In this document: positions 3,027-49,432 of the stretch, in pieces
Layout: each line of letters begins with the position of its first letter
Numbering within the stretch: the first letter of the stretch is position 1
Assembly (NCBI GenBank): GCA_002256025.1
Contig: NKIB01013951.1
Coordinates: 1-49,582, forward strand
Length of the DNA stretch: 49,582 bases
Direction: 5' to 3'
From: Asterionella formosa
Taxonomy: Eukaryota
Position numbers and translations under genes: made by a program
Notes under the pieces: model-generated
Databases searched by the model: none
What the model saw: only the letters and a program-made list of their open reading frames with translations
What the model was told of the DNA's origin: nothing

Positions 3027-5012
3027 CTATAATTCCAAATCAAACTGATCCAACCCTTGGTTCGGCAAATCGCTATAGGCCATTTCGGAAATCATGTCAT
3101 TCAAAGCACTATCGCTCGACCCTTGCCGCTTATGCTTTACAGATTTCCGTGCGATTGGTTCCGTCGTATTCTTCTTCTTGCTGGTGGTATTGGCTGCCGG
3201 GAAATCCCGTGGAATCAAAGTCACAAATCGAGCCGGAATATGATATTTTGGCAGGTTCCCAGACTCATCTTGGTCGTCTCCATCAAATTCTACAACCACG
3301 ATATCGTCATCACCCCGACAGAATGAAGTCGAATCAATGGCAGTGGCAGAATACAAGGAAGTAGTCATGGGATACATGGCATAGACTCTCGAACCCTTTT
3401 TAATTCTGGTATTCCATTCAGCTGCTTCTCCATGGGATCGTGGTAGGGGTAATACCAAGTTCCGAGAAACATGTGAATTTATCCCACCTTCGCTTTCTTC
3501 CGCATCCTTAATAACAACCTTGTCTCGAAAGAGTGCATCGCGCCTTGCATCAGTCAAAGACAAGAATTCCTTCATGTCTAGCCCAGAGTCCGGGTAGGCA
3601 GTGACGACACGTGCCAAAATCCACAAATAGTCTCGGGAGGACACACGAGCTGCCACATAGTCCCCAGGGTTTAGCGCCCGAAAGCGAAGTACAGAAAACA
3701 ATCGCCATGCTTGTTCCTTTTTCGGTAGCTTGGCAAATTGATCTGGAAGTTTAATTACGGGGTCAATCGCCAATTTTTGCTTGCGCAGCTTGCGAAGGGA
3801 TGACCCATTGGGATCACCAGGGTTTGAGTTTGTTTGTGTGGACGGTGGTTGTTGGGCAGCAGTAGTGTTTTTAGCCAAAAGTCGTTTTGAAGGACTAGCC
3901 GCAGTTTGTGGTAGTGGAATGTTGAGGATGGGAACTTTGGTGTTTGCCAAAGTATGTGGCATGATACCTTTGCTGTCACTTGGTGAAGGCATAACAAATT
4001 TTTGGCCTTCCAGTGGTATCATAACATGACTTGGATCCATTTCTGCCAAGAGACCACGTAAAACACTATGCATCTGACGACAAAACGAGAGCCCTGACAT
4101 TAATTCCGTTTTTATCTTCTTGGCAGTTCTCGGGTTCATAATTTGAAGTTTCAAATCTTCTTCTTGCTGCTGTTCATCGTGATTGTCTTTTTTTGTCCAT
4201 TGAACCTGTCGGGCCCGTTGCTTCTTAATCCGTTGAGCCGTCGATGTGGCCCTTAAAAATCCATTAGTTTGGGGACCGCCAAGCAACCGGTGAGCTAACC
4301 AAACTGTGCGGTCTGTTGTGTTACATTGAGAGAGGAGATGAACTGTTTCTTCATGGGACATTTGATGTGGCGGTGGCTGGAGTGGATCTGCCGGTGTGGC
4401 TGTCGCGTTTTTTGCGATGTTTCCAGGAGGGTCATTTGGTGTTGTTAACTTGGTGGAATTGGTAAGTTCTGGTGGACGAAGGAGAAAATGTTGCGTGGGA
4501 GACGAGCGTGGGTGGTTGGGAGGTACGCTTGGTAGGCTAGGAATGGATGTCATGGGTGAAGTAACGGACTGCGGTAGCAATTGCCGTTGTTGTTGGTACT
4601 GCTGATTAAGTTGATGTTGTAAGAGTTGTTGTTGCTGCTGCCCTTGCAGTTGTTGCTGTTGATTGTGTTGCTGCATTTGCTGCTGTTTCTGCTCTTGTGA
4701 GCGCTGCTGCAGCTCTTGCTGTTGCCTCAGTAATTGTTGTTGCTGGTGCTGCTGTTGCTGTGTTTGAAGTCTTATGAGCTGCTGCTGCTGAAGTTGAAGT
4801 TGCAAGAGACGCTGCTGGGGTGTAGTGGGGCTGGTGGTTGTACCGGGAAAGGCTGCATTGGGATAAGACAATGCCTGCGGCTGCTGCTGCTGCTGCTGCA
4901 ATTGCTGTTGCTGATGAACGAGTTGTTGAGTAGTCGGTACAGGTAGACCAGTAAACGAGCTGTGTTGTTGCATTCCGTTCTTGACAAAGTCATTGTGATT
5001 GTGTTGCGACAT
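3027..5012 (-). CDS. SGF29: SGF29-like tandem Tudor protein (SAGA-associated factor 29 family) with N-terminal poly-Q region
   Basis: C-terminal GDYVAARV...WILARVV...VYAMYPMTTSLYSA...VEFDGDD...IPARFV matches the SGF29 Tudor pattern. Start at ATG 5012 is inferred (ORF open from 5096). Confidence 0.8.
   Translation of the reverse strand: MSQHNHNDFVKNGMQQHSSFTGLPVPTTQQLVHQQQQLQQQQQQPQALSYPNAAFPGTTTSPTTPQQRLLQLQLQQQQLIRLQTQQQQHQQQQLLRQQQELQQRSQEQKQQQMQQHNQQQQLQGQQQQQLLQHQLNQQYQQQRQLLPQSVTSPMTSIPSLPSVPPNHPRSSPTQHFLLRPPELTNSTKLTTPNDPPGNIAKNATATPADPLQPPPHQMSHEETVHLLSQCNTTDRTVWLAHRLLGGPQTNGFLRATSTAQRIKKQRARQVQWTKKDNHDEQQQEEDLKLQIMNPRTAKKIKTELMSGLSFCRQMHSVLRGLLAEMDPSHVMIPLEGQKFVMPSPSDSKGIMPHTLANTKVPILNIPLPQTAASPSKRLLAKNTTAAQQPPSTQTNSNPGDPNGSSLRKLRKQKLAIDPVIKLPDQFAKLPKKEQAWRLFSVLRFRALNPGDYVAARVSSRDYLWILARVVTAYPDSGLDMKEFLSLTDARRDALFRDKVVIKDAEESEGGINSHVSRNLVLPLPRSHGEAAEWNTRIKKGSRVYAMYPMTTSLYSATAIDSTSFCRGDDDIVVVEFDGDDQDESGNLPKYHIPARFVTLIPRDFPAANTTSKKKNTTEPIARKSVKHKRQGSSDSALNDMISEMAYSDLPNQGLDQFDLEL
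4590..4920 (-). repeat. CAG/CAA-rich poly-glutamine coding tract
   Basis: Runs of (CTG)n/(TTG)n on the + strand within the SGF29-like ORF. Confidence 0.9.
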
Positions 5013-5739
5013 GATGGTTCTTCGCTTCGTTTCAAGAACGCTTCGAAGAGTACTATTATGAGTCGACCTGGGATACCGGTAGTCCAGGTATGACACTGTC
5101 CAGGACTATTTACGGTGTAGTATACCGTATCTGTGATAGAAGCCGATGAGAGTGTCAAGGGACGGCATAAGATTCGTCGGTCTTTTCTTATTATATATAT
5201 AATGTAGCAGAATATAAATGTATATATACCCTGCGTTCATACATGCTATATCAAAAGACCATGTATACATTGCTTGCTTTGCATCTTGGCTGTTATTATC
5301 ATGCTCGGGTCGAATTTTGTTATACAGCCTCCGGGTTTTGTGTACCTGGTATCCTCGTTCGGGAGAAACACTTTGCTTTATTCGGATATGTGTATGTATC
5401 TGTGTCGTTTCCAGATACAGTTCATTAGTTTAACAATTAAGTTAATTTAGTGCATGTAATTATAGTTATCAAGAACAACACTTTTTCTATTCCAAACCAC
5501 AGACAAAACAGACAAGATTTCTTGGCAGGAGGAGGCATCCACGGGGACTATAATCCCAACAACTTGTGTTTGTTGTTGTTTTTCCTTCTCATCATGGCTT
5601 TGTATGATTCTACTGATAATGGTTGACTCTATCCATAAGCTCAATGATCTGTGGGTTGCAACAAACATTCCTGGAGATTTTTAAAAGAAAATGATGGTAA
5701 ACTAGCTGACCATGATAAGGGAAATTTAAATACACCCCC

Positions 5740-5888
5740 NNNNNNNNNNNNNNNNNNNNNNNNNNNNNNNNNNNNNNNNNNNNNNNNNNNNNNNNNNNNN
5801 NNNNNNNNNNNNNNNNNNNNNNNNNNNNNNNNNNNNNNNNNNNNNNNNNNNNNNNNNNNNNNNNNNNNNNNNNNNNNNNNNNNNNNNN
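5740..5888. other. Assembly gap (N run)
   Basis: Ns in sequence. Confidence 1.
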
Positions 5889-7607
5889 GCTCCAATGACT
5901 TTGGTGGCTTTCTGTTTTCTGCACTGTCTCTAGATACAGAAACAATTCCAAGGCTAGAGCCTGCACACTGATTGCAAATGAGCCTAAGACTGACGATCTT
6001 TGATTCATGATGGAGAAGCCAAAAAATCCTCTTGGCTCATCAAGATCAATAAGACAAGTTCTTGTAACTAAAGACCGTTGATAACAAATCTACTGATTCA
6101 GGAACACCTGAATTATCTTCTTCACAATCATCTGCTTCCAAGCCATCGACTTTGACTTCTCCTAATAAAGCTGTTGAACGCAGCCAGCAGTTTGAATGCC
6201 ATGGGATTGATGACTATCCAATCACATTTGATATATTGGATAGTGGACAATTGTTGGAAGTTAGGGCTTGTTTTCTAACTGTCCATTACAAGTTCTGTTA
6301 CAAAAATGAATAAATATCTTGTAAAAAAGGATAGATTTGGTGTCTCTTTTAAGATCTGCCTTTATTTGTCATCAGCCAATGCCAGGTACTCGAAAATAGA
6401 TATAAAGATATGCACAACAACATAATAATGCTTTTGTAATGAGTAAGAAGTTCAGGGGGGTAGTACTCTGGTAGCTTAGATGCAAAACTGGAAATATTAC
6501 TACTATGTAGTATGGCAAAAGAGCAACAAATCTGAAATCGAGATTTCAGAATTGGACTACATAACATGATGCTGGCAGTGGGGAGCATATCAATTTACTG
6601 CCTATTTGGGTAATTGCAACAATGATATTTATTCCATTACCTGTATATTACATAAAGATACCTACATACATCGCTATCTCTCGTCCTGTTTGCACATTGT
6701 CATTCAATTATTACCATTTACATCTAAGCCAAGTATTACATGAAGATCCTTTATGTAAATATGCATAGTTGATTTTGAGAGCAGGATCTTAGTTGGATTT
6801 TGAAATGAATTATTTAAACACCAACTAATTCAGCCTCAAGTTCAAAGTTCATCGTGAAAGCTTTACATGAAACCGTTAAAAGTAACCTTTTTTATGGGAA
6901 GTGTGGTATCATGAGGAAGTACCACATAATTATCAATCCTGCACTGATGAAATTTCGAAAAGTGGCGTGTTTCGCGGCTTAAATGTACTTCGCCTTTCGC
7001 TTTGATTGTTCCACCAAAACCTTGGAGATTTCAAGAGCAACAAAATGAACAATAGATCATGCTCGAGATTCCATATACCAATCATCACCTACTATTGCCT
7101 CCTTCAATTAGTTTATGTTAAATTTGTCCCACACAAACTTTCCATAAATTCAATGGTGTGGTATAGTGTGATTCACACCCTTGACTGGCGCATTCTTTGC
7201 GAGAGGATCCACCAAAAGAAGTTAATTGTCAAAATCAGACTTTTATAATTATCATCTTAGACAAAATATATATTTATAGTCTGTGTTTGACTACTACCAG
7301 GTACTGGTAGCTGGTACTCCAGGTAGTACAACAAGGTACCAGTACCTGGTAGCTGGTAAGTTGGTATTTACAATGATACATAATTGATTGTTGCGTTTTT
7401 GGTGATTCTATCAGCAACTAATATTTGCCAAGTCGCCGGGGGGTCATGTAACACATAATTGCTAATCGGGGGATGGAGGATGCAAAATTTAGTACATTTT
7501 GTAGCCCATTCGTAATCTTCTATTTCTATTGGCAAGTCACTAGTTTGTATGCACTTTTCGAACTAGTTGACACAAACCTGACCAAATTTTTTGTTTTCGA
7601 TTGAATG

Positions 7608-7741
7608 NNNNNNNNNNNNNNNNNNNNNNNNNNNNNNNNNNNNNNNNNNNNNNNNNNNNNNNNNNNNNNNNNNNNNNNNNNNNNNNNNNNNNNNNNNNNN
7701 NNNNNNNNNNNNNNNNNNNNNNNNNNNNNNNNNNNNNNNNN
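7608..7741. other. Assembly gap flanked by an identical 47-bp duplication (7561-7607 = 7742-7788)
   Basis: aactagttgacacaaacctgacc...ttgaatg lies on both sides of the Ns. Confidence 0.95.
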
Positions 7742-8531
7742 AACTAGTTGACACAAACCTGACCAAATTTTTTGTTTTCGATTGAATGCTCACTGGATCC
7801 AAATCGAGTTTCTCATTCCATGTGAATTCTTCTTCTTTCTCATGACAATACTTTGTTGAGCAAAACTCGACCAACATAAAAATGATTTTACATAATCTGT
7901 CAGCAAACCCCAAATCGATTATCGTTTTGCTTCCATGCATGTGAATTCTTCTTTTATTTTTATGGTAGATTTATTCAACAACTCAAAGCATGATGCTGGT
8001 CCTTGTTCATATAAGTCGATGCAAATCATAATATTTTTCTAGTTAATCTGTCAGCAGTCCTCTCAAACCAAATTTTACTTTCCATTTGAATTAGGTGTCT
8101 TCTTCATGATGATCGAATAACCTAATAGATCAAATCAGTATGTTTGTGCATTTGGACTATTTGGTGCCAATTAAATCTTAGCAGGCCCAAACCGCATTGT
8201 GATTTCGATCTGAATTGCCATTTGTTGTCATGATGCAAAATCATATCCAACAACACCTCGAAATAGCACCATATTGGTCCTGCTACTTCTTAGTCACAGG
8301 TGCATTGGGAACTATGTATAACCGGTCAACCGTACAAATTCATGTATGATTTCACACATTCATTTTTTGTAATGTGCTGACCCATTTCGACATCAAGTAT
8401 GGCATACGAACGGATTCTAGATTCCGTCCTGTGGTACTCTCGTGTGTAGAATTTATTGTATGTGATGCAGTCCCACTATCCCTACCTGTCAGATCAATCA
8501 AGCTATTACCGGTAGCTTTGTTTCTACATTG

Positions 8532-8870
8532 GTAACTAGACCTCGGAAAGTTACTCCCATGGGCCAACGCCCCGACGGGTAGGGCAGACCGCATACTGGT
8601 CAAGACTGGGGCTGCACACAGGTTTTTAGTGAGTAAAAGTCTCACACTACCTCGCCCAGGTAACGGCAGGGTGCCTCACCAGACACCAGGTCATTAATGG
8701 ATGACGGGGTGCCTCAAAAACATTCCTGAGTACGTGAACTGTTGGGAGGAGTTAGAATCCTCCCATTATGCCCCCCAAGCACCCCACATCGATGGGGCAG
8801 GCAGGCAAAGCGGCTGGATAGATCTTCTCCTGGCGCCTTGAAACAGCCAAAAAAACCCCTCGGAAACTGA
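8532..8870 (+). ncRNA. Candidate structured RNA / retroelement-derived structured repeat
   Basis: GC-richer island with about 9 consecutive stem-loops, e.g. TGGGAGGA/TCCTCCCA 8743-8765, GTGAG/CTCAC 8629-8645, GTAACT/AGTTAC 8532-8554, GGCTG/CAGCC 8812-8848. Strand is inferred. Confidence 0.55.
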
Positions 8871-9250
8871 CTTAACATTTGCTGTATTCGGTTGATTATT
8901 GCTATTTACATAGTCGTATGTATAGGCTACAGGGTACTCAATTACCATACCGGTAGGTCATCTAATATGTATGACAATCTTAGTGGACTATAGCAACTAG
9001 AAAATCATAAATATACCTGAACTCAGCTACAGTAGCTATCCAATCAGCAATTGTTGCCTATCATTGCAATTGTAACAGCAAAACCTCATCAACTTTTGCA
9101 CATCGTGACTGTATTTGCAATAGGCCACTTCTTCTGTACTGTAGTTGTTGTGTAAAATGACGCAAAAAATCCACTCTCGCACATTGTATCAACAGACTAC
9201 TACTTCTGTATTGTAGTAGGTTACAGTGCGCTGTACAAAATCTTGAAAAG

Positions 9251-10033
9251 CTAATCTACAGACCTTTTCCTGCGCTTTGGCTTTCGCCCTCGTCGTTTCA
9301 TTCTCTGATAGGTTGGCAAGGCATGAACAGCCTGGTCCAGCTCTTGAAAATATATGTTCAGCATCTTTTCAACTTCATCATCCCGTCCTTGTCGGTATCC
9401 CTTCATGAACTCACCCAAACAATCATTGGCAAGACGAAGCATGTCTTCCGCAAATATTTTGAGATCTTCTTTCGTACGAATGCCAGTATTCTCCTTGACC
9501 TTTTCCAGAGCCTTGGCTCCTTCCTTTTTGAGCAATTGTAGATTGTTGTCCACCTGCTGTGGCGCTTTTGCTTTCTTTTTCTCCCAAAATTCCAAAGCGT
9601 TTGCCAACTTGTTGTCGATTGGAAGGCCTTGCTCTTTCAGTTCCTTCTCCATCAAGCGTTCCAAAGTGCCCTTGTCTTCCCACCAAGGCATATACCCTTC
9701 ATAGGATGCCCAATATTGTGGTAACCGAATTCGTATTATCCCCTTCCATTCCTCAATCGTTCTGGGCCATCTCTTTTCGGGTTTAAACCCCTCCGGTTTC
9801 TTGGGTGGCTTGCCAAATATAATTTCTGACACTGTGTCTTCCCTCTCTGCATCCTCCGCGGCAAATTGTACTTTTGCTTTTTGGAGGCGGCGTTTTCGAG
9901 ATACGTACTTGTTTTTAAATAAAGTACTCCTGAAGCGTTGCTGCTGTTGTTGTTTTTGTTGTATTCTAGATAGATTCGTCGAAAATTGGGAGATGATGTG
10001 AGAGCGAGTAGACCGTAGAATAGAGACAAACAT
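9251..10033 (-). CDS. Hypothetical protein, probably mitochondrial
   Basis: 260-aa ORF with an Arg/Ser-rich, acid-free N-terminus (MFVSILRSTRSHIISQFSTNLSR) and a helical C-terminal block CLGEFMKGYRQGRDDE. Confidence 0.75.
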   Translation of the reverse strand: MFVSILRSTRSHIISQFSTNLSRIQQKQQQQQRFRSTLFKNKYVSRKRRLQKAKVQFAAEDAEREDTVSEIIFGKPPKKPEGFKPEKRWPRTIEEWKGIIRIRLPQYWASYEGYMPWWEDKGTLERLMEKELKEQGLPIDNKLANALEFWEKKKAKAPQQVDNNLQLLKKEGAKALEKVKENTGIRTKEDLKIFAEDMLRLANDCLGEFMKGYRQGRDDEVEKMLNIYFQELDQAVHALPTYQRMKRRGRKPKRRKRSVD

Positions 10034-10821
10034 GAGTTTGCTGTGCTTTTGATTTCATTGCTCATCAATACACACTACATGTTGGTCTTTGTTGATGCTT
10101 TCCTCGCTCGCCGCAGTTTTTAACAGCAAGAAGTACCGGGTAGAGCTACCAGATACCAGGTACCAGGTACCATGCAATTTTGGCACCATGGCTGATGTGG
10201 CTGACGAGATTCAGAGGTAAGCACATACCGGTAATCATACTAATGGTACCAGGTACCTAGTACCAGGTACCGGTAGGCACCTACGGGTCGTTAACTCCGG
10301 GTCCCTGATATGGTACTAACAGGTAGGAGTACCAGTTAGTACGTAGTTGGACCATCGACACAGGCCACTACCGGCATCCGTGTACAAACCTTAATCCAAA
10401 GACCACAGAGCATTCGAAAAAGGTTCCAAAGTGTACTACCGTACTAGTAGACACCTCAAATCCTTCGATTAGGGGCTAAATAAAATTATGGGTTGAGGGG
10501 CCATCATTGCTTTCATGATAAGTTGCCAGTATGAGAAATGAACCTAGTCTGTAGCTAGAATAGTGCAGGTGAATGCAAAGATGCAACTTTGAATTTGTCC
10601 TTGGTTCATCTTTTCCATGATGTCCAATCTGCACTGTATTTGGCAACTTGTTTGCACTTACAGAAGTAGTCTGAGATTTCCATAACTATGGAGCTCAATG
10701 AAATCAAGTCTGTACTAATAGGCTATGGTTGATTTGCTATGGAAGTGATAGATGTATAAATATAGGGTTCACAGCATGAGTTGAGAAAAACAAAATTAAT
10801 CTTTCTCAGTATATGTAATTA

Positions 10822-11955: not shown

Positions 11956-12094
11956 TGTTGGATTTACTTTGTGTGATGGTTATTAGGGTCATTGCCATGT
12001 GGACTCGTACAACCAAGGTAGGTCCGTCCGGTAATCGAGATGTTTAGCTTAATCTTTTCGTAAGTTTAACCGTGTTTTACCGGACTTTCCAAGG

Positions 12095-12153
12095 TACCTG
12101 GTACCAGGTACCGTACCAGGTACCAGTCCGGAGGAACTACCTGGTACCGGTAC
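12095..12153. repeat. Chain of TA-delimited CC(N)GG units (representative of many upstream regions)
   Basis: TA-CCTGG-TA-CCAGG-TA-CCG-TA-CCAGG-TA at 12095-12122. Similar chains at 10154, 15177, 26409, 37537 and 37612. Confidence 0.9.
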
Positions 12154-14450: not shown

Positions 14451-15545
14451 ATCTTTTTGTGATGTGTGCGTTTTTGTGATTTATTTTAGCTATGTTTGCA
14501 TACAGGTATTTATACTACCGGTATGTACACCGGTTTGCTTTTGTTGTCATAAATATTCTTTACGCACAAATAAAAATGTATCGTTATGCGACGTCCATAG
14601 CTAAGGATATACCAGGTGCAGTAGTAATGTAGTACATGTGGTTGGGGAGTACCTGGTATATATCTGGAACCTGGAGAACGAGGACCTCGTACCTTGTTAC
14701 CGTGAGTATTTACCTGGAATTTCCAGTAAAACATGAAGTTAAATATCTCGATTACAGGACCTTCCTGGTGGGCTACGATACGGTACCAGGTAGCAAGTAA
14801 CAGGTACTCCCCATACTGTAGTCTACCCGTACTCCTGCCGTCTATGAATCTGTTACCTGGACTAGAAACCACCAACGGTACCCTGGTACCTTTTTTCGTA
14901 CCGTACTTGCCATACTTTCAGGAGATATCTCGAAGACGGATCTTACTACAGTACAGGTACATTTTCACTACTGTATATAAATAGAAAGAAAATAGGTTCA
15001 TCCACAATACATATACCGGTACATGTGCTTCTCATTTCCGACAACTTGCCTGATACCGGTACCTGATACTGGTACTTTACTAACGGTACTCCTGGATTTG
15101 TTACTCCGTTCCTACAGGTACGACGGCAGTATATGTACAGATACATACGATATGATATCCCGATCGATACATATGGTACCTGGTACCAGGTACTCCACCT
15201 CGTTGGATGGACGACTGTGCTGTGGACTTTTCAGTACCAGGTACCCGATACATTCGCTGTGGTTGCCACAGAAAATACAAACCATAGCTACGACCGGTAA
15301 GCATCATGTGCGTATGTATACAGTTACCGGTACCTGGTAGTCTAAAGCTCTACCGGTATATCGTATGTACATACGAGCATTATTTTTCATTTGTTGTGAA
15401 GGGACCACTGTCATATGCTCTATCTGTGGGTAGTCCAATAATAATGAATGAAAACCCAGGAGGACAATGACCCAGACGGTGACGACGAGCAATCAACAAC
15501 AACAACAACCACCACCACTCCATTCGAAAGAAATACTGCCAAACA

Positions 15546-26180: not shown

Positions 26181-26588
26181 TACTAGTATGACCGACATTG
26201 AAAAGTACGTGCTTGATTAGTCTGACTCAATATTTTTTTAACCCTACCTCGAGCTAGGGGTTCAAAGTATATCACACACCGGGTACCTGTACCCGGTATC
26301 AGGAAAATGACTGACCTCATTTTCCTTTTCTCGTCGCTCTCGAGACGATGCATAATTGAGTGCAACGCCAAGAGAAAGAATTACGGTACCTGGTACCCCC
26401 ACTGTATGTACCAGGGTACCTGGTACCTGGTACCGGTAGAGGGAAAATTACCTCTTCGTGTTTTGTGGACAGGTCGATCTATTATTGGCTCGGCGTTGCG
26501 TATCTGGGAGTGATTCGTTTCCTCAGTGGTAAACCTTTAGATTGTCCTCAAGGTTGCTTGAATTGAGTGTTATGTGCAGGCCCAAAGT

Positions 26589-29170: not shown

Positions 29171-29177
29171 ACCTGGT

Positions 29178-31384
29178 GAGCAATCCCGCATATCAATATA
29201 GATGCATATAGGGCTACAGTTATATCATATATATCAGAACTCAATAATGAGAGAACTCGACTAACACCAATTGTATATTTTGGTGTCAACTAGGAGAACA
29301 AGTTGCATATCAAGATTAAATAATAAACTCATTTATTCAACAAATACTACTACTTCTAGTTAGATAGCTACTTCACTTTTGATTCAAAAAGAGTCCAATT
29401 AGAACAGGACAAACATGGCAAGAATTTATTCAAGGGGTTCCTCTCAATCCTTTGCTTGATCAAAGATTACAATGTATTGACTATTAAAACTAAAACTTTT
29501 CAAGTTTCTGAATCGCTCAACCAAGATGTGATTGATGGAAGCTCTGTGGGAGTGTTGTTAATCAGAGTGAGTCAATTTTGTGATGCGGCTAACACATGTG
29601 CTTTTAGACCTGCAGATAACTTTTCCCATTTCAGAAGGTGTTAGACCGACATTGCTTTATCGGATTGGTCAAATGTTGAAGTTCAACCAGAAGATCAATC
29701 CTATGATAGTTTCGATGAAGAAATGATTTTGTGGCTTGATGATTGTCTTCCAATCAATAGTTTTCAACGTCAATGTCAGTGGATGCTTCGCTATCTATAT
29801 AAGCCCTTTTCTATGTTGGTGATGGATTTCGCTGCTCGTTTTAAAATTAATCAGGCTACTCCAAATAATGCCTCATCCAGAAGATCAAAAGTGATTGTCG
29901 AAAGAAGACATGCACATCATCATTATCCGATTGATGCCCGATGAGTGGCAACAAGAATTTGAATTGAATCATGCCAATACTTTGGACCAAACAATTTGCT
30001 CGGTTCTTAATTACTTAGAGAATCAACATTCCTTTAAGGATCGAAACAAGCACCTTCCCAAGAACACTTTTCAGACTAGCGCATAAAATCGTCTTCGTAT
30101 TGCTGAAAGCAATCGTGTGATGCATCAAGAAACGAGGGCGTCAGTCGTCAGTTTTACCAAAATAATTGCAATCCAAGTGGTTGTGGATGGGCGCGTGCTA
30201 TTGTGAATGCGGCTGGTTGTGCATGGGATCGACAAGCGACCATCCATCATCAAGCTCTACAAGCCAGTGGTATCTACCACGATTATTGTGGCCCTTGCCC
30301 GGTACACCCTAAGTGTGCCAGTACTTGGGGCAATTGCTTCCAGAACCCTTGTTGTCTTACTCAAGGCGGTCGAGGAGGTTGTATGGCTGCTTGTCATAAT
30401 GGCCATGGACATTTCGGTTTTGGTGGTTATGGCAGTGGAGCACACAGTAACCCTACAGAAAGCTATCATACTGACACTGCTAAACCTGTGCCTGTTCCAC
30501 TTACTCATATGTTAAATGCATGGGGTTGTAATGATCACCCATCCGGCTGGGGTAACATGTCACATGCCGATCTTAACGAGACAATGTCTATCCAAGAAAT
30601 TTCAGTGGTCACAAACCCTCCTCCTGATCAGTTAGTGGCTTTTGTCTCTACTATACAACAGCAGAATGCTGATCACCATCACAGAGGTATGTGCGATAAT
30701 AGCAATGCTATTTATAATGACTCATTGAGCATGTCTCACGTCAGTCATCACCTGGATAATATTGTTTATTTACAGGTTGAATATACAATGGATACCGCTG
30801 TTGCTGTAACACGAGACATATATAAATGTATAGATGGACATGATGTTCCATATTTATACCAGGGTCTGATTCCAGTGTATTGATTTGATTCTGATGTCTC
30901 TATTAGCGCCACGATTGGTGGATGCTATCCTTATGCATAAAATTTGACAAGTACTATTTGATAGTGGAGGATCCCTTTAGTAATTTCCAGAGCATATTAG
31001 GATTCGATAAAAATAGGTACATCAAAATATAATAATAAAACATCATGTAAACCTTCTCAATCATCAAAAAATGTGAGAGGATGTATAGGAACAAGTTATC
31101 CATACAAGTCATGGTGCTATTTCCAAAATCAATGGTTAAACCAACTTGACGAAAGAAGTCACGTCCTAAAATTACATCAAATGTACATTGCTTGGCCATT
31201 GAAAACTTGGGGCATTTTGGTGGTAAAATACGAGCAGATCAATTAAATTCAGGGAATATTAGATCATATAAAATAACACTGGCATGAGATGAATAAGTAC
31301 CAGCTATGGTATTTATTAATTGGTATGTCTTGTTAGATAAAGAAATACCTTGAGGCATAACCTGTTCCTGTATTAAAGATGGAT
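29178..31384 (+). mobile_element. Decayed Ty3/Gypsy element: partial 5' LTR (29178-29375), gag, and protease with an inverted segment
   Basis: QCQWMLRYLYKPFSM...FAARF, MPDEWQQEF, CPVHPKCASTWGNCFQNP (gag); VLFDSGGS 30951-30974 on +; FDVILGRDF..VGLTIDF on the - strand. Confidence 0.8.
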
Positions 31385-33364: not shown

Positions 33365-33929
33365 TGATGATGATTACCTATATATTTTTCCGCTATTCTG
33401 ATTGGTGGAGACAACCTGAAGATTAATCTTCGGGAAGAAACGAAGATTGTTCAAGAAAATACGAAACAATAGGGTCAGGTTGTCGGGGATGACCCCCGAA
33501 ATATTCGGGCGAAGCAACGAATGCAGATTGATCTTCGTAATCGGGGGGGGGGATTTGCGAGTTATTTAGCCCGTAAGGGACGGAAATACGAAGATTAATT
33601 AAACGCCCAACACAGGTAGGGGCGACTCAATCTCCGTAATTCGGGCACCGTAAGACGGGGCTATAAAAGTGTGGCAGAGTGGTCGATCCCGCCCATCAAC
33701 ACAGCTGTAAATAGGGTTAGAGTTATATCATACATATCAGAACTTAATTAGAATAATGAGAGAACTCGACGAACACCTCTATTGTATACTTCGGTGTCAA
33801 CTACCGGTACGGTAAATAAACCAGTTGCACATCAAGATACCGGTAAAATAATAAACTCATATACCGGTATACCGTTTTATAGCTATGTTCAACAAATTGT
33901 ACTACCGGTAATTCTAGTAAGATACTTCA
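33365..33929 (+). mobile_element. Solo LTR related to the Gypsy LTR at 29178-29375
   Basis: 33680-33929 aligns with 29178-29375 and both end in CTTCA. TATAAAA at 33662. The TG start near 33363-33365 is inferred; no clear TSD. Confidence 0.7.
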
Positions 33930-34932
33930 CCTGGTACTAGGTACCATAGTCTTCTCCACCGTATGTTCGTCACGAAGGACAAAATACAAGAGAGTCAGTT
34001 AAATGTCGCGACCGTCCGCCAGGTTACTTGTTCCGCTTCTCTTGTTCGACTCCCAACCAGCCCTGTGCATTACTAACTATCCTGGATGGTCGTCATCTTT
34101 GCTATGTACTCCCTCCTTCGTATCACCCAAACAAGTTCCTTGATAGAGTCGGATGGTTTTCCAATTTATATCTACGTACGTACTACGTGTTCTCATCTTT
34201 GTATGTGTTGATCATGTACACAGGCACTCAGGTAGACCTCGTGCAGGTACCTGGTAGGGTTAGTTATCAGGTCCTGGTACCAGCTGCCAGATATCCTTGA
34301 ACGCACGGTGGTGAATACATTGACGACAAAGTAGTTACAGGTAATACCGGTAAAAATATAAACAGCAAGTTGCTGTAATTTTGTCGAACTAAGGAGTTAG
34401 CTATCTTTATCCCAGATTAAATTGTTTATTTAAGCAAAATGACGCAACTTGCAGGTGCCAGGGTACCAGATACCAGTTACCAGTACCTGGTACCATTGGT
34501 TAGATGAGGAGTAGGACAGGAGTACCGGTACCTGTGCTGGAGCTTCGTACCCGTACCTGATTCACTCAGCCAGCGTTACCTGTCACATTTGTCTCAAGAC
34601 CATTAGAAAACATCAACTGGTGGTGGGACAGTGTCCCCTGGTTGCCCAAAAATTTGCAAATTGCTCACTTCCCAGTTCTTTTCGGAGGTTTGTCCATAAC
34701 TTCCTACCGACAACTGGGAACATGCTTGGGTTGTTCGTTTGTTGCGATCTTTTGTTTGCTTTTATGTGTGTATCAATTACTCAACCTACATAAGAAAAAG
34801 AATGCTGGGGGAAATGTGAATATTTCCTGAAAGCATGCATAAATTATCCATCTGAATACCGTACTGATTAAATCTTTCCTAATAGGTTTTCAAGCTCTTT
34901 GCTGTTTTCCCTATCGATAGAATCTGGTCATC

Positions 34933-37330: not shown

Positions 37331-37967
37331 GATGGTGTCGTATACCTGTATCTACTATGTAGAAGTACTCGTTGCTCAATATTTTTGTCAGTGTGCCTAT
37401 TTTAGATAAGCTATGAGCGAAATAGCAAGCAGTGCCAGTTGCTCGTCTTTGTTATTCGTGTTCCGTATGAAAAGTGTGATTATTGTACCGGTCGCACAAG
37501 GCATGGTACCAGTACTACCTGTTACGGTGGTTGAAATACCCGGTACCTGGTACCAGGTACTCCTTCCTGCCTGGTGGTAAGCACGTTGATGGTCAATGTC
37601 CACTGCCTTGGTACCAGGGTACCCGTACCAGGTACCTGGTATCAGTAAAATGATGGGAGTACATACCGGTATGAATCCTTTTCGTAATCATCATGTGGCT
37701 ACATACTGCTGGTATCATCGTAACCGGTACTTCAATGTGTCACTACAGTACTTGGATCTCGACTTCGTTTGCCCTCATCCGCCCAATCGAAAGAGTCTTC
37801 TCCTTTTGCGTTGTTGCAATACGGATAGTCTTCACTAGCTACTCAAGTCTGATATAGAGGGAAACCATGAACGTTTAGTGAAGGGAAACGTAAAACTTCC
37901 ATCTTGATTACCTGGTACTCTACTACCACTCAAGTAAAAGTAACTCTGTCCCAACAATACATTGAAC

Positions 37968-38702: not shown

Positions 38703-39527
38703 CTAATTATTAGAGGGCATTTGTGGGGAGGAATTGTTCCCAATTATAAATTAGAAAGACCATGAAGCAATGTAATTTCATGAGAAAGGAAGCCCCACAG
38801 GAAAATTTCGATTTTCCTAGTAGACCATCATGATGTGCAATTTTCATGGTCAATCGTAATTTTGGTTGAGGGCAGGCTATCATTGCAAAGAGGTAGTGCA
38901 TTGCCTCTAATTTTGAAAATGAGTGTCATTTGATTTGTTTTGTTGCTCAATTCTCCATCAATCCTGTTCTTCTCCCCAATGTATATCTTCTTGTATCAAG
39001 TTCTCCCTTCTTACCTTGCCATTTGTTGGTGGTGGTCATCTGGTATCTCAACCCCAATTTGAGAAGGTATTACCACCTAGACTACCGGTATTATGTTAGC
39101 TATTATATATACCGGTCCATGTATGTATAGGAAATTATACTTTGGTGATGGGTACCGGTACCCGGCACCGGAGTACCTGGTACCTGGTATGTAGTTTACT
39201 TGTGACGAGGAGGAATGAAACATACCGGTAATCGGTTTCTGCAGACATACCAGAAAGGTCGTGCGAAGAGATCTAATAGTGTAAACATCCCCTGATGAAC
39301 ATTTGGCCAATCATATGAAAATATAAATAGAAATGGCAAGCAATGAAGTCATAGATTTCCTCCCCCCCCCCCATCATCGTCACTTGCCCCCACAAAAACT
39401 GTATAAACAATCTAGTAGTAGCTAAAATATACTTCCCATCAAGAGGCAAGCTTATTGTTCCAACCGACACGCTGACCCATTGAGAATATCTGTTGATCTC
39501 GATCCTTGCTGTCTCTCTCCTTCACGC

Positions 39528-48495: not shown

Positions 48496-48886
48496 TAATT
48501 TATTCGGGTTAAACAAAAATTTATTTCCTTAATCGAATAATTATGTGTGTTCGTGACAATATATGTTGACCAACTAGCCATCGCGACAGTAAAAAAGCGA
48601 AATTATGCTGCTCCGCCACAATATTATGCTGCTTTCACCATATAATGAACGAAAGAGTCGCCAATTCCGATTCACTATTATTTTTTCCGCTCCGACATAT
48701 TTCTTTGATCTGAACTGGCAAAGAATAACACATGCAAGAGGAAGATTCACACAGTAGAATTCAGCACACGTAGTAGTGGTTGATGTTGTAGACACATTGT
48801 TTAGTCATTGTTGATTGTAGAGATTACAATAGCCTGCCAGATTAGAAATAAAGCACCGTTGGTACTTGTTGAGCATCGTTGAGCAT

Positions 48887-49432
48887 TGCATGTCTCCGTA
48901 GTGAGTCGAAATTGAGATGTGCCACAATGGCCTTCTCTGTTTCAGAGCAGTTACAATAGTCTACAGCGATAACTCTAACAAGTACAACATAGAAAAATAA
49001 TTAAAGGATGAGTAGCTGCCTGTCAACGATTGACTTTGTAAATTCGTTAAGAAACAGCTGTTGCATATTACAACATTCAATGCGTGTCGCTGTAGTGAGT
49101 AAAAATTGAGATGTGCCGCAATGGCCTTCTCCTATTCGGAGCATCTACAAAAAGTCTACAGCGATAACTCTAGCAAGTACAATATAGAAAAGAAAGCAAA
49201 GGATGAGTAGCTGTCAACGATTGAATTCGTAAATTCGTTTAGAAACAGCTGTTGCATATTTTAACATTTAATGCATGTTGCCGTATTGCTTCGAAATTGA
49301 GATTTGCCGCAATGGCATCCTTCTTTTTGGAGCAGCTACAAATACTCGAAAGAGCGATAACTCTAGCAAGTACAATATAGAAAAAGAAGGAAAGAATGAG
49401 TTGCTGTCAACAATTGAATTAGTAAATCAGTA
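48887..49432. repeat. About three tandem diverged ~192-bp units
   Basis: Units start at 48887, 49081 and 49272; shared AAATTGAGAT.TGCC.CAATGGC...AGCGATAACTCTA.CAAGTACAA.ATAGAAAA...CTGTCAAC.ATTGA. Confidence 0.92.

Follow-up and report, generated by a model that had tools for sequence, protein, structure and literature searches.

The best understood RNA signal for target-primed reverse transcription (TPRT) is the 3′ untranslated region (3′UTR) of the R2 element. In PMC12203849 this region is described as the RNA that the R2 protein recognises for TPRT, and the same signal is reported to be in use now for RNA-templated gene insertion. Two further sources describe ENEs, stem-loops that lie near a poly(A) tail and carry a U-rich internal loop next to G–C pairs (PMC7583470), and report them from other transposons as well (PMC12501189). 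Here we describe a short, GC-rich island (positions 8532–8870) in a stretch of 49,582 nucleotides from the alga Asterionella formosa (GenBank assembly GCA_002256025.1, contig NKIB01013951.1, positions 1–49,582 of the forward strand; hereafter the window). The island is a fragment of a poly(A)-tailed long interspersed nuclear element (LINE) of the apurinic/apyrimidinic endonuclease (APE) type. We consider it very probable that positions 8557–8855 are a dead, 5′-truncated, about 9% diverged copy of this multi-copy non-LTR (long terminal repeat) retrotransposon, with relics of a structured 3′UTR fold.

Seven metagenome loci (L001–L006 among them) were retrieved with a 24-nt word from the island. 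By blastn, six of them match 8557–8855 at 91.1–91.7% identity; the seventh, L003, matches 8557–8744 only, at 90%, and diverges beyond that point, ahead of the A-tail. A long open reading frame (ORF) directly precedes the island sequence in all seven loci. In the three loci where it is complete (L001, L005, L006), this ORF is 1498–1500 amino acids long and contains an Exo_endo_phos domain at residues 250–456 (E 5.4e-11 to 1.9e-12) and an RVT_1 reverse transcriptase (RT) domain (E 2.5e-27 to 3.3e-27). The solved structure closest to it is human LINE-1 ORF2p (E 8.6e-25), with R2 behind at E 3.7e-14, and the relatives listed for it are unnamed brown-algal proteins of 36–38% identity. Related ORFs number at least 150. 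The full element measures about 5 kb, and just one long sense ORF, of about 1500 amino acids, was seen in it. Six of the seven loci finish in CAGCC (GAGCC in L002) and a run of A whose length varies from 7 to more than 20; beyond it comes either unrelated DNA or a further copy. The first-pass annotation of the island, made from its letters alone, had offered the tail of a non-LTR element as one of its readings and had proposed checking whether longer copies abut RT ORFs; the APE and RT ORF directly upstream in 7/7 metagenome loci, together with the multi-copy nature of the sequence, bears out that reading.

The same boundaries appear when contigs from four public runs are aligned to 7900–9800 and word depth is counted, a depth that is not a copy number. 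On 8540–8859 it is about 125–160 in run X11 and 300–500 in run X6, as compared with about 0–5 for the flanks in X6 and downstream in X11; some upstream bins of X11, which hold other repeats, reach about 11. The depth of 8557–8855 is roughly forty to a hundred times that of its flanks, and the other copies show about 40 common differences from the window copy. One X11 contig of 3288 nt terminates on 8557–8855 and then poly(A), and loose contig ends carry A11 and A15 (X11 and X6). Contigs from RNA libraries that cover the island derive from other copies and may be DNA carry-over, so we make no claim of expression.

Truncation points differ among copies: the window copy starts from the last 26 nt of the ORF, and L002 from a point corresponding to L005 position 4257. 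The same nine bases, CCTCGGAAA, stand before the start of homology and two bases after the A7 run, and we therefore read this end repeat as a target-site duplication; among about 20,000 random 30-mer pairs from the same spacer, 107 share 9 nt or more (p about 0.005). For L002 a duplication is not clear, since just 4 nt are repeated. The copy was inserted by TPRT that ended early, leaving the 5′ truncation; truncation, A7 tail, and 9-bp target-site duplication together form the signature of TPRT stopped early. The window contains no second copy of the island, and tblastn found no RT-like frame in it. The GC-richer, non-coding character noted in the first-pass annotation is real (GC 0.565 in 8557–8848 vs. 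0.368 in both 5100–8530 and 8871–9250; no long ORF or Pfam-bearing frame covers the island in six-frame translation), and the GC-rich look is due to the LINE's own composition.

More distant relatives were obtained by a protein-pattern scan of prokaryote genome bins, which gave four contigs (L008–L011) with endonuclease–RT ORFs 27–31% identical to the ORF of the master copies, the near-identical copies of the window family. Each of these contigs is 4.7–5.4 kb long and essentially one endonuclease–RT LINE with its poly(A) tail; all carriers, L008–L011 included, have APE domains. They are filed in bacterial metagenome-assembled genomes (MAGs) of Gemmatimonadaceae, a gammaproteobacterium, Polynucleobacter, and Burkholderiaceae, and are evidently eukaryotic LINEs that were mis-binned, that is, contamination of bacterial MAGs. 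These four MAGs contain one further LINE only, on a contig that ends before the 3′UTR. Other searches of this kind were negative: a protein-pattern scan of viral contigs and a DNA pattern in genome contigs gave none, three hairpin patterns run against viral contigs gave nothing or only T-arms in phage tRNA-gene clusters, a pattern for the block around the stop codon matched only unrelated bacterial-type DNA, and the model R1 had no match outside its training rows.

The 3′ regions of L008–L011 are not alignable as a whole with the window family; with proteins just 27–31% identical, neutral UTR sequence should indeed be unalignable. What the families share is an order of motifs: GG-U(4–6)-A, a 5-bp stem with a 7-nt loop of the form U..RA.U, the second arm of the stem, and an A (mostly as ACUACC). 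We refer to this core hairpin as hp1; GG-U(4–6)-A stands ahead of it in 7/7 aligned rows. Its stem is GUGAG/CUCAC in the window family, GUGGG/CCCAC in L008 and L009, CUGGG/CCCAG in L010, and GUCGG/CCGAC in L011, so that 35/35 cells are paired and three of the five pairs have changed on both sides. The covariation score was reached by 1 of 500 shuffles, and slid registers were 23–69% paired. A regular expression for the motif (UUUUA + 5 bp + U.....U + 5 bp + A) hits each LINE tail once and has no other site in the window or the loci, for an estimated chance expectation of about 0.03 in all sequence scanned. A further hairpin, hp0, stands shortly past the stop codon and recurs at the same place in L008 (GCUC/GAGC) and L009 (GGAC/GUCC); here 20/20 cells are paired, two of the four pairs have changed on both sides to give three forms, and none of 500 shuffles reaches the score. 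The block CGGGCCAAMGCC...GGGUAGGGCAG around the stop codon is likewise shared. In L008 this block lies in another frame than in L005 and L009, which hints at constraint on RNA rather than on protein; many relatives nonetheless terminate in ...[QR][RS]P[ND]G.

These data show, with few sequences, that hp0 and hp1 are kept with compensatory changes across LINE families of 27–31% protein identity, and that the 3′ region of the intact elements is a structured RNA of which several of the hairpins listed in the first-pass annotation are relics. The deeply conserved fold proposed there therefore stands for the core hairpin, which has compensatory changes in five LINE families (a small sample), and falls for the window copy, which folds like its shuffles. 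The changes in the core hairpin are of the same type as the compensatory swap (TCAG/CTGA for TGAG/CTCA) that the annotation had tentatively proposed between this core and a moth repeat.

Separate minimum free energy (MFE) folds of L009 (z −2.55) and of the divergent subfamily L006b (L006:5095–5339, minus strand; z −2.68) yield the same junction, in the order P1, U-tract plus A, hp1, P3, P4, second U-tract, and return arm of P1. P1 is AGGCAG/CUGCCU or ACAAGG/CCUUGU, with its return arm 20–30 nt ahead of the poly(A); the base of P3 is UACC/GGUG in L009 and the master copy, and P4 is CCU/AGG. L008 folds at z −5.05. The motifs conserved between families (GG-U4–6-A, ACUACC, GGUGCCU, AGG-U5-C) are all placed around the junction core. 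We regard the junction as a reasonable but provisional model.

By analogy with R2, and with one sub-threshold Rfam match, the most likely function of the intact fold would be recognition by RT. The junction would serve as the cis signal by which the element's own RT selects and positions its template RNA, with priming at the nearby poly(A), much as the 3′UTR would do in R2 and 3′ stem-loops in ‘stringent’ LINEs. A role in which the fold keeps hold of the poly(A) tail, or protects it, is less well supported. The sub-threshold match aligns the 3′ end of L011 to positions 69–211 of the R2 RNA element model (RF00524), placing hp1 on an R2 helix behind a single-stranded UUUUAG, and the L011 loop UAGGAAU on R2's UAGG...AAU, with a U-rich strand ahead of the closing arm. 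A broader proposal, which we put forward tentatively and think rather doubtful, is that the core of the island is a worn copy of an ancient RT recognition junction common to animal R2 and to a large, undescribed APE-type, poly(A)-tailed LINE clade of algae and other protists. Such a junction would consist of a T-loop hairpin between two U-rich strands, together with a closing stem. The LINE 3′UTR fold, which RT probably recognises if the R2 analogy holds, is apparently undescribed: a literature search covering the motif, ENEs in LINEs, and T-loop hairpins of LINEs found no description, some possibly relevant papers being outside its reach.

A number of observations weigh against a conserved, RT-recognised junction. 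The first-pass annotation had named folding energy relative to dinucleotide shuffles as a check, and here its structured RNA fares poorly: the MFE of 8532–8870 is −108.8 kcal/mol vs. a shuffle mean of −108.0 (z −0.13; 54 of 100 shuffles as good), and the minus strand (z −0.93), the 3′UTR alone (8583–8848; z −0.48), and the master copy (z −0.51) give no better picture, the master copy again folding no better than shuffles. L010 is weak as well (z −1.51). Enforcing P1 and hp1 together costs nothing in L009 and L006b, 2.4 kcal/mol in the L005 master copy, 6.0 in L010, 8.5 in L008, and 6.3 in the window copy. When P1 arms are swapped between families, only those of L009 are specific to their own partner, the others being unspecific because all are AAGG/CCUU-like. 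A local alternative closure (GGT/ACC; AGGU/ACCU in the master copy) is possible in every family, and the MFE folds of L010 and L008 have this local closure. The covariation sample is small (five families, seven distinct rows); hp1 of L011 was found with a pattern that requires pairing; hp0 and the junction were first spotted by eye, so that the pairing percentages are partly built in; and hp0 is absent in L010 and L011. The match of L011 to RF00524 reaches 25.7 bits where the gathering score is 38 (E is 0.14 for 26.7 kb of sequence and 0.0015 for the 282-nt tail by itself), and the window, L005, L008, L009, and L010 have no match to this model at E ≤ 10, leaving one matching tail in six. Finally, the general view of poly(A)-tailed, L1-like LINEs is that recognition works via the tail rather than via 3′UTR structure.

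The close copies add little to this balance. Their alignment comprises the window copy, seven near-identical master copies or parts of them, and L006b; 32 of the 47 listed pairs that lie within the element are invariant in it, and invariant pairs are uninformative either way on selection for the fold. Pairs private to the window copy number three, one each in the stems 8684–8711, 8713–8730, and 8812–8848, while changes on both sides occur in two pairs only, both in the TGGGAGGA/TCCTCCCA hairpin and both from L006b alone, which breaks two other pairs there. The close copies would not by themselves sustain the fold, and the stems taken as a set are at chance level in the window copy. For the stem set of the first-pass annotation the outcome is thus divided. 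Its ten named arm pairs are all present at their coordinates as exact reverse complements, and its repeats are where it placed them (CCTCGGAAA at 8541 and 8858, GGGTGCCTCA at 8669 and 8707, a 28-nt core at 8621); most of the pairs do not vary among close copies, however, and some are found in the window copy only. The first stem on its list (8532–8554) is outside the repeated element altogether, being made of flank, target-site duplication, and junction filler.

Could the hairpins be chance products of a GC-rich LINE, and the likeness between families a matter of descent or tail recombination rather than of selection on the fold? The near-zero z values in the window and master copies, the private pairs, and the small number of families, partly picked by eye or by a regular expression that demands pairing, all speak for this reading. 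We nonetheless consider it improbable, as both arms of the hp1 and hp0 stems have changed where loops and flanks have not, P3 and P1 keep their place despite unrelated sequences, three relatives (L009, L006b, and L008) fold well below their shuffles, and at this level of protein identity a neutral UTR would be expected to be unalignable. A fold maintained for another purpose is about as improbable: the two U-tracts might form an ENE-like clamp, a triple helix with the element's own poly(A), whose main job would be RNA stability rather than recognition by RT. Tracts of U4–6 do occur on both sides of a G–C-ended stem, 19–30 nt upstream of the poly(A), in L005, L006b, L009, and L010, four of the five tails compared. 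The tracts are 120–245 nt apart, however, with several helices between them and no short upper stem; no Rfam ENE family matches; and the 3′ side in L008 is only AAAUUU. The R2 junction that this one resembles has U-rich strands too, and R2 RNA is not known to be polyadenylated.

Readings in which the island is something other than a truncated LINE fare worse. It is very unlikely that it represents a non-autonomous element, similar to a short interspersed nuclear element (SINE), that has borrowed a LINE tail. The island is short, ends in poly(A), and has a target-site duplication and a T-arm-like hairpin, and the master copies contain a box-B-like word, GTTCGAATCC; but homology begins within the last codons of the LINE, with no separate head and no contig that has a shared 5′ head before 8557. 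ARAGORN calls no tRNA gene in the window or in six LINE loci, nor is there a cloverleaf or tRNA-like head, and other short copies break elsewhere in the ORF (L002 being an example), which fits random 5′ truncation. A gene for an independent structured RNA—a Pol III transcript, an RNase P/MRP, signal recognition particle (SRP), or telomerase RNA, or a ribozyme—would account for a GC-rich, ORF-free sequence of about 300 nt with many small stems and for its presence in RNA libraries. This is exceedingly unlikely, and we judge it already refuted by the other copies, every one of which runs upstream into an endonuclease–RT ORF and ends in poly(A). In addition, the window has no Rfam match at gathering score, the island and the master copy's tail have none at E ≤ 10, the fold is no better than shuffles, and the changes private to the window copy break pairs. 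The free-standing structured RNA of the first-pass annotation can accordingly be dropped. Its suggestion that the RNA is possibly catalytic receives no support from Rfam either, whose ribozyme families match neither the island at E ≤ 10 nor five LINE loci at E ≤ 1.

We return, then, to the island as a 5′-truncated LINE copy, whose features are collected in Table 1. Ahead of 8557 the window departs from the other copies, in which the sequence is ...GGGGTCCCACA(A/C)ACCT, and the stop codon falls inside a conserved block, GGGTAGGGCAG (8577–8587). The CAGG arm of the junction is complementary to the CCUG behind the 3′ U-tract of the master copy. P3 is a 10-bp helix in the master copies and has a C·A mismatch and a deletion in the window copy. 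The TGGGAGGA/TCCTCCCA hairpin is present in all close copies, with a counterpart in L009 (CUGGA-GUUUGAA-UCCAG) at the matching place. The second U-tract has been lost in the window (GGTTTTCT to GATCTTCT), several pairs of P3 are gone too, and at two sites, 8822 (A>G) and 8824 (C>T), the other copies show the other letter in all or almost all of their depth; losses of this sort are expected for a dead copy. With its 3′ U-tract and several pairs lost, and without an ORF, the window copy is now functionless as a recognition signal. The feature is in itself ordinary, transposon debris with relics of a LINE 3′UTR fold.

Table 1. Coordinates of the LINE insertion in the window, and of associated repeats and words
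Feature	Position	Strand	Remark
5′ target-site duplication, 9 bp, CCTCGGAAA	8541–8549	+	Exact repeat of 8858–8866, just outside the element
Junction filler GTTACTC	8550–8556	+	Alignments to all other copies begin at 8557
ORF end: last 8 codons and TAG stop (8580–8582)	8557–8582	+	Aligns to the ORF ends of L001, L005, L006
LINE 3′UTR, 266 nt	8583–8848	+	About 91% identical to master copies
Hairpin hp0, GACC/GGTC, 7-nt loop	8587–8601	+	Five bases past the stop
Purine-rich arm CAGG and U-tract UUUUUA	8619–8628	+	5′ side of the junction
Core hairpin hp1, GTGAG/CTCAC, loop TAAAAGT	8629–8645	+	
Decayed hairpin P3, UACCUCGCCC ... GGCAGGGUG	8648–8673	+	
Hairpin TGGGAGGA/TCCTCCCA, loop GTTAGAA	8743–8765	+	Loop GTTCGAA in master copies
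Remnant 3′ U-tract and pyrimidine arm, GGATAGATCTTCT CCTG	8816–8835	+	GGATAGGTTTTCT CCTG in master copies
A7 tail	8849–8855	+	
3′ target-site duplication, CCTCGGAAA	8858–8866	+	
Head-to-tail LINE copies (metagenome loci)	L005:1–570; L006:1–60 and 5095–5340; L004:995–1190; L001:1–210		
GGTACC-like clusters	62–93; 10139–10272; 12089–12113; 14776–14807; 15162–15195; 26411–26439; 34456–34487; 37529–37654; 39168–39192		

The metagenome LINE copies are arranged head to tail: within 0–300 nt of a tail and its A-run another copy begins, either with its 5′ region or as a truncated 3′ fragment. Tandem insertion could account for this arrangement, as could a preferred target within the element or an effect of assembly. 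In L003 (1288–2292), the sequence departs from the family after the match to 8744 and has, further along, a second stretch of the ORF that is 91% identical and similarly oriented, and this locus is therefore read as a rearranged or nested copy.

The window belongs to a compact eukaryotic genome whose genes mostly lack introns; they include genes for a pentatricopeptide repeat (PPR) protein, SGF29, Noc2, a histone deacetylase, and an ammonium transporter, and the stretch is present in public runs labelled as algal and freshwater samples. The island occupies a 4-kb, AT-rich, repeat-rich spacer (37% GC) between the minus-strand genes at 3027–5096 and 9251–10033, the LINE copy itself being on the plus strand. 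Candidates considered for the island and rejected were a small coding exon, for which six-frame translation gave nothing; read-through of the stop codon of the LINE ORF, the next stops of which are not conserved; and a telomerase, SRP, or RNase P/MRP RNA, none with support from Rfam. The adjoining minus-strand ORF (9251–10033; 260 amino acids, no Pfam match) is covered without differences by contigs of two RNA libraries, which reach 8948 and 8846. The 3′UTR of this gene may therefore have the LINE tail, on the opposite strand, at its end or just past it. We attribute these contig ends to the assembly having broken at a repeat.

Repeats also occur elsewhere in this spacer. Segments 7993–8016, 8160–8268, and 8384–8463 are multi-copy, with depth up to about 150–210 on 8348–8475; they have no match to the LINE loci and therefore belong to another element. 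One of these repeats has a sharp end at 8463, beyond which flanks differ. The spacer contains runs of N at 5740–5888 and 7608–7741, the second of which is bracketed by an exact 47-nt direct repeat (7561–7607 and 7742–7788), which suggests a collapsed or masked repeat with a period of about 181 nt; TRF found no tandem array in the spacer. Elsewhere in the window, GGTACC-like words (GGTACCWGGTACC) occur in intergenic clusters of two to three on both strands. Similar words also flank the LINE copies L002 and L010, which come from other samples, and this algal group may use the word for regulation, for instance in promoters or terminators. Direct repeats of about 100 nt at 29176–29268 and 33679–33777, 80–96% alike and 4.5 kb apart, could be LTRs or the ends of a duplication, and the window's end (48884–49427) consists of about three tandem units of roughly 191–195 nt that are 73–91% alike.

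For annotation, the consequence is routine for this genome, namely to mask the island as a truncated LINE copy and to keep it off the list of RNA genes. Of wider interest is that a poly(A)-tailed LINE family keeps a multi-hairpin 3′ junction down to 27% protein identity, with one member that resembles the R2 3′UTR. If the proposed recognition junction proves true, the line usually drawn between LINEs with a 3′ structure as recognition signal and LINEs with poly(A) in that role would be less clean, and these small elements would offer a compact new template-recognition module. If the junction is in addition common to R2, the recognition RNA module would predate the split between LINEs with restriction-like and with APE endonucleases, or would have moved between them, and the U-tracts of poly(A)-tailed elements might also hold the tail for priming.

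Among described systems, the window copy is most like the ‘dead-on-arrival’ insertions of poly(A)-tailed LINEs of the APE type, L1 among them, with which its family shares an endonuclease and RT ORF, a variable poly(A), a target-site duplication, random 5′ truncation, and many copies; the family differs in its single ORF of about 1500 amino acids with no separate ORF1 seen. The hp1 hairpin has the outline of a tRNA T-arm, with a 5-bp stem and a 7-nt loop in which positions 1, 4, and 5 are U, a purine, and A, but no cloverleaf surrounds it and loop positions 2–3 are not UC. The hp1 pattern retrieves T-arms in phage tRNA-gene clusters, where one of six hits is inside a called tRNA, and in cmscan the T-arm of tRNA-Sec aligns with hp1 of L008 (E 1.1). 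With ENEs the elements share U-rich strands flanked by G–C pairs near the poly(A) of a transposon RNA, but here a simple upper stem and an Rfam match are both lacking, and a triple helix would be hypothetical.

The 3′ stem-loops of ‘stringent’ LINEs (eel UnaL2 and others), which PMC5135761 mentions, offer a conserved 3′UTR hairpin with compensatory change and a presumed RT site. In those elements the hairpin stands beside 3′ terminal repeats, without poly(A), whereas here it is 120–245 nt upstream of a true poly(A). The R2 element provides the fuller parallel: a multi-helix junction with a purine-rich closing arm, a single-stranded UUUUA, a 5-bp helix, and an A, continuing 3′ with another hairpin and, after a U-rich strand, the closing arm, although hp1 is without the 32-nt insert of the R2 helix. 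R2 has a restriction-like endonuclease and a 28S rDNA site, whereas the LINEs described here are dispersed, have an APE-type endonuclease, and end in poly(A), and hence are not R2 elements; the window copy itself lies between protein-coding genes rather than in 28S rDNA.

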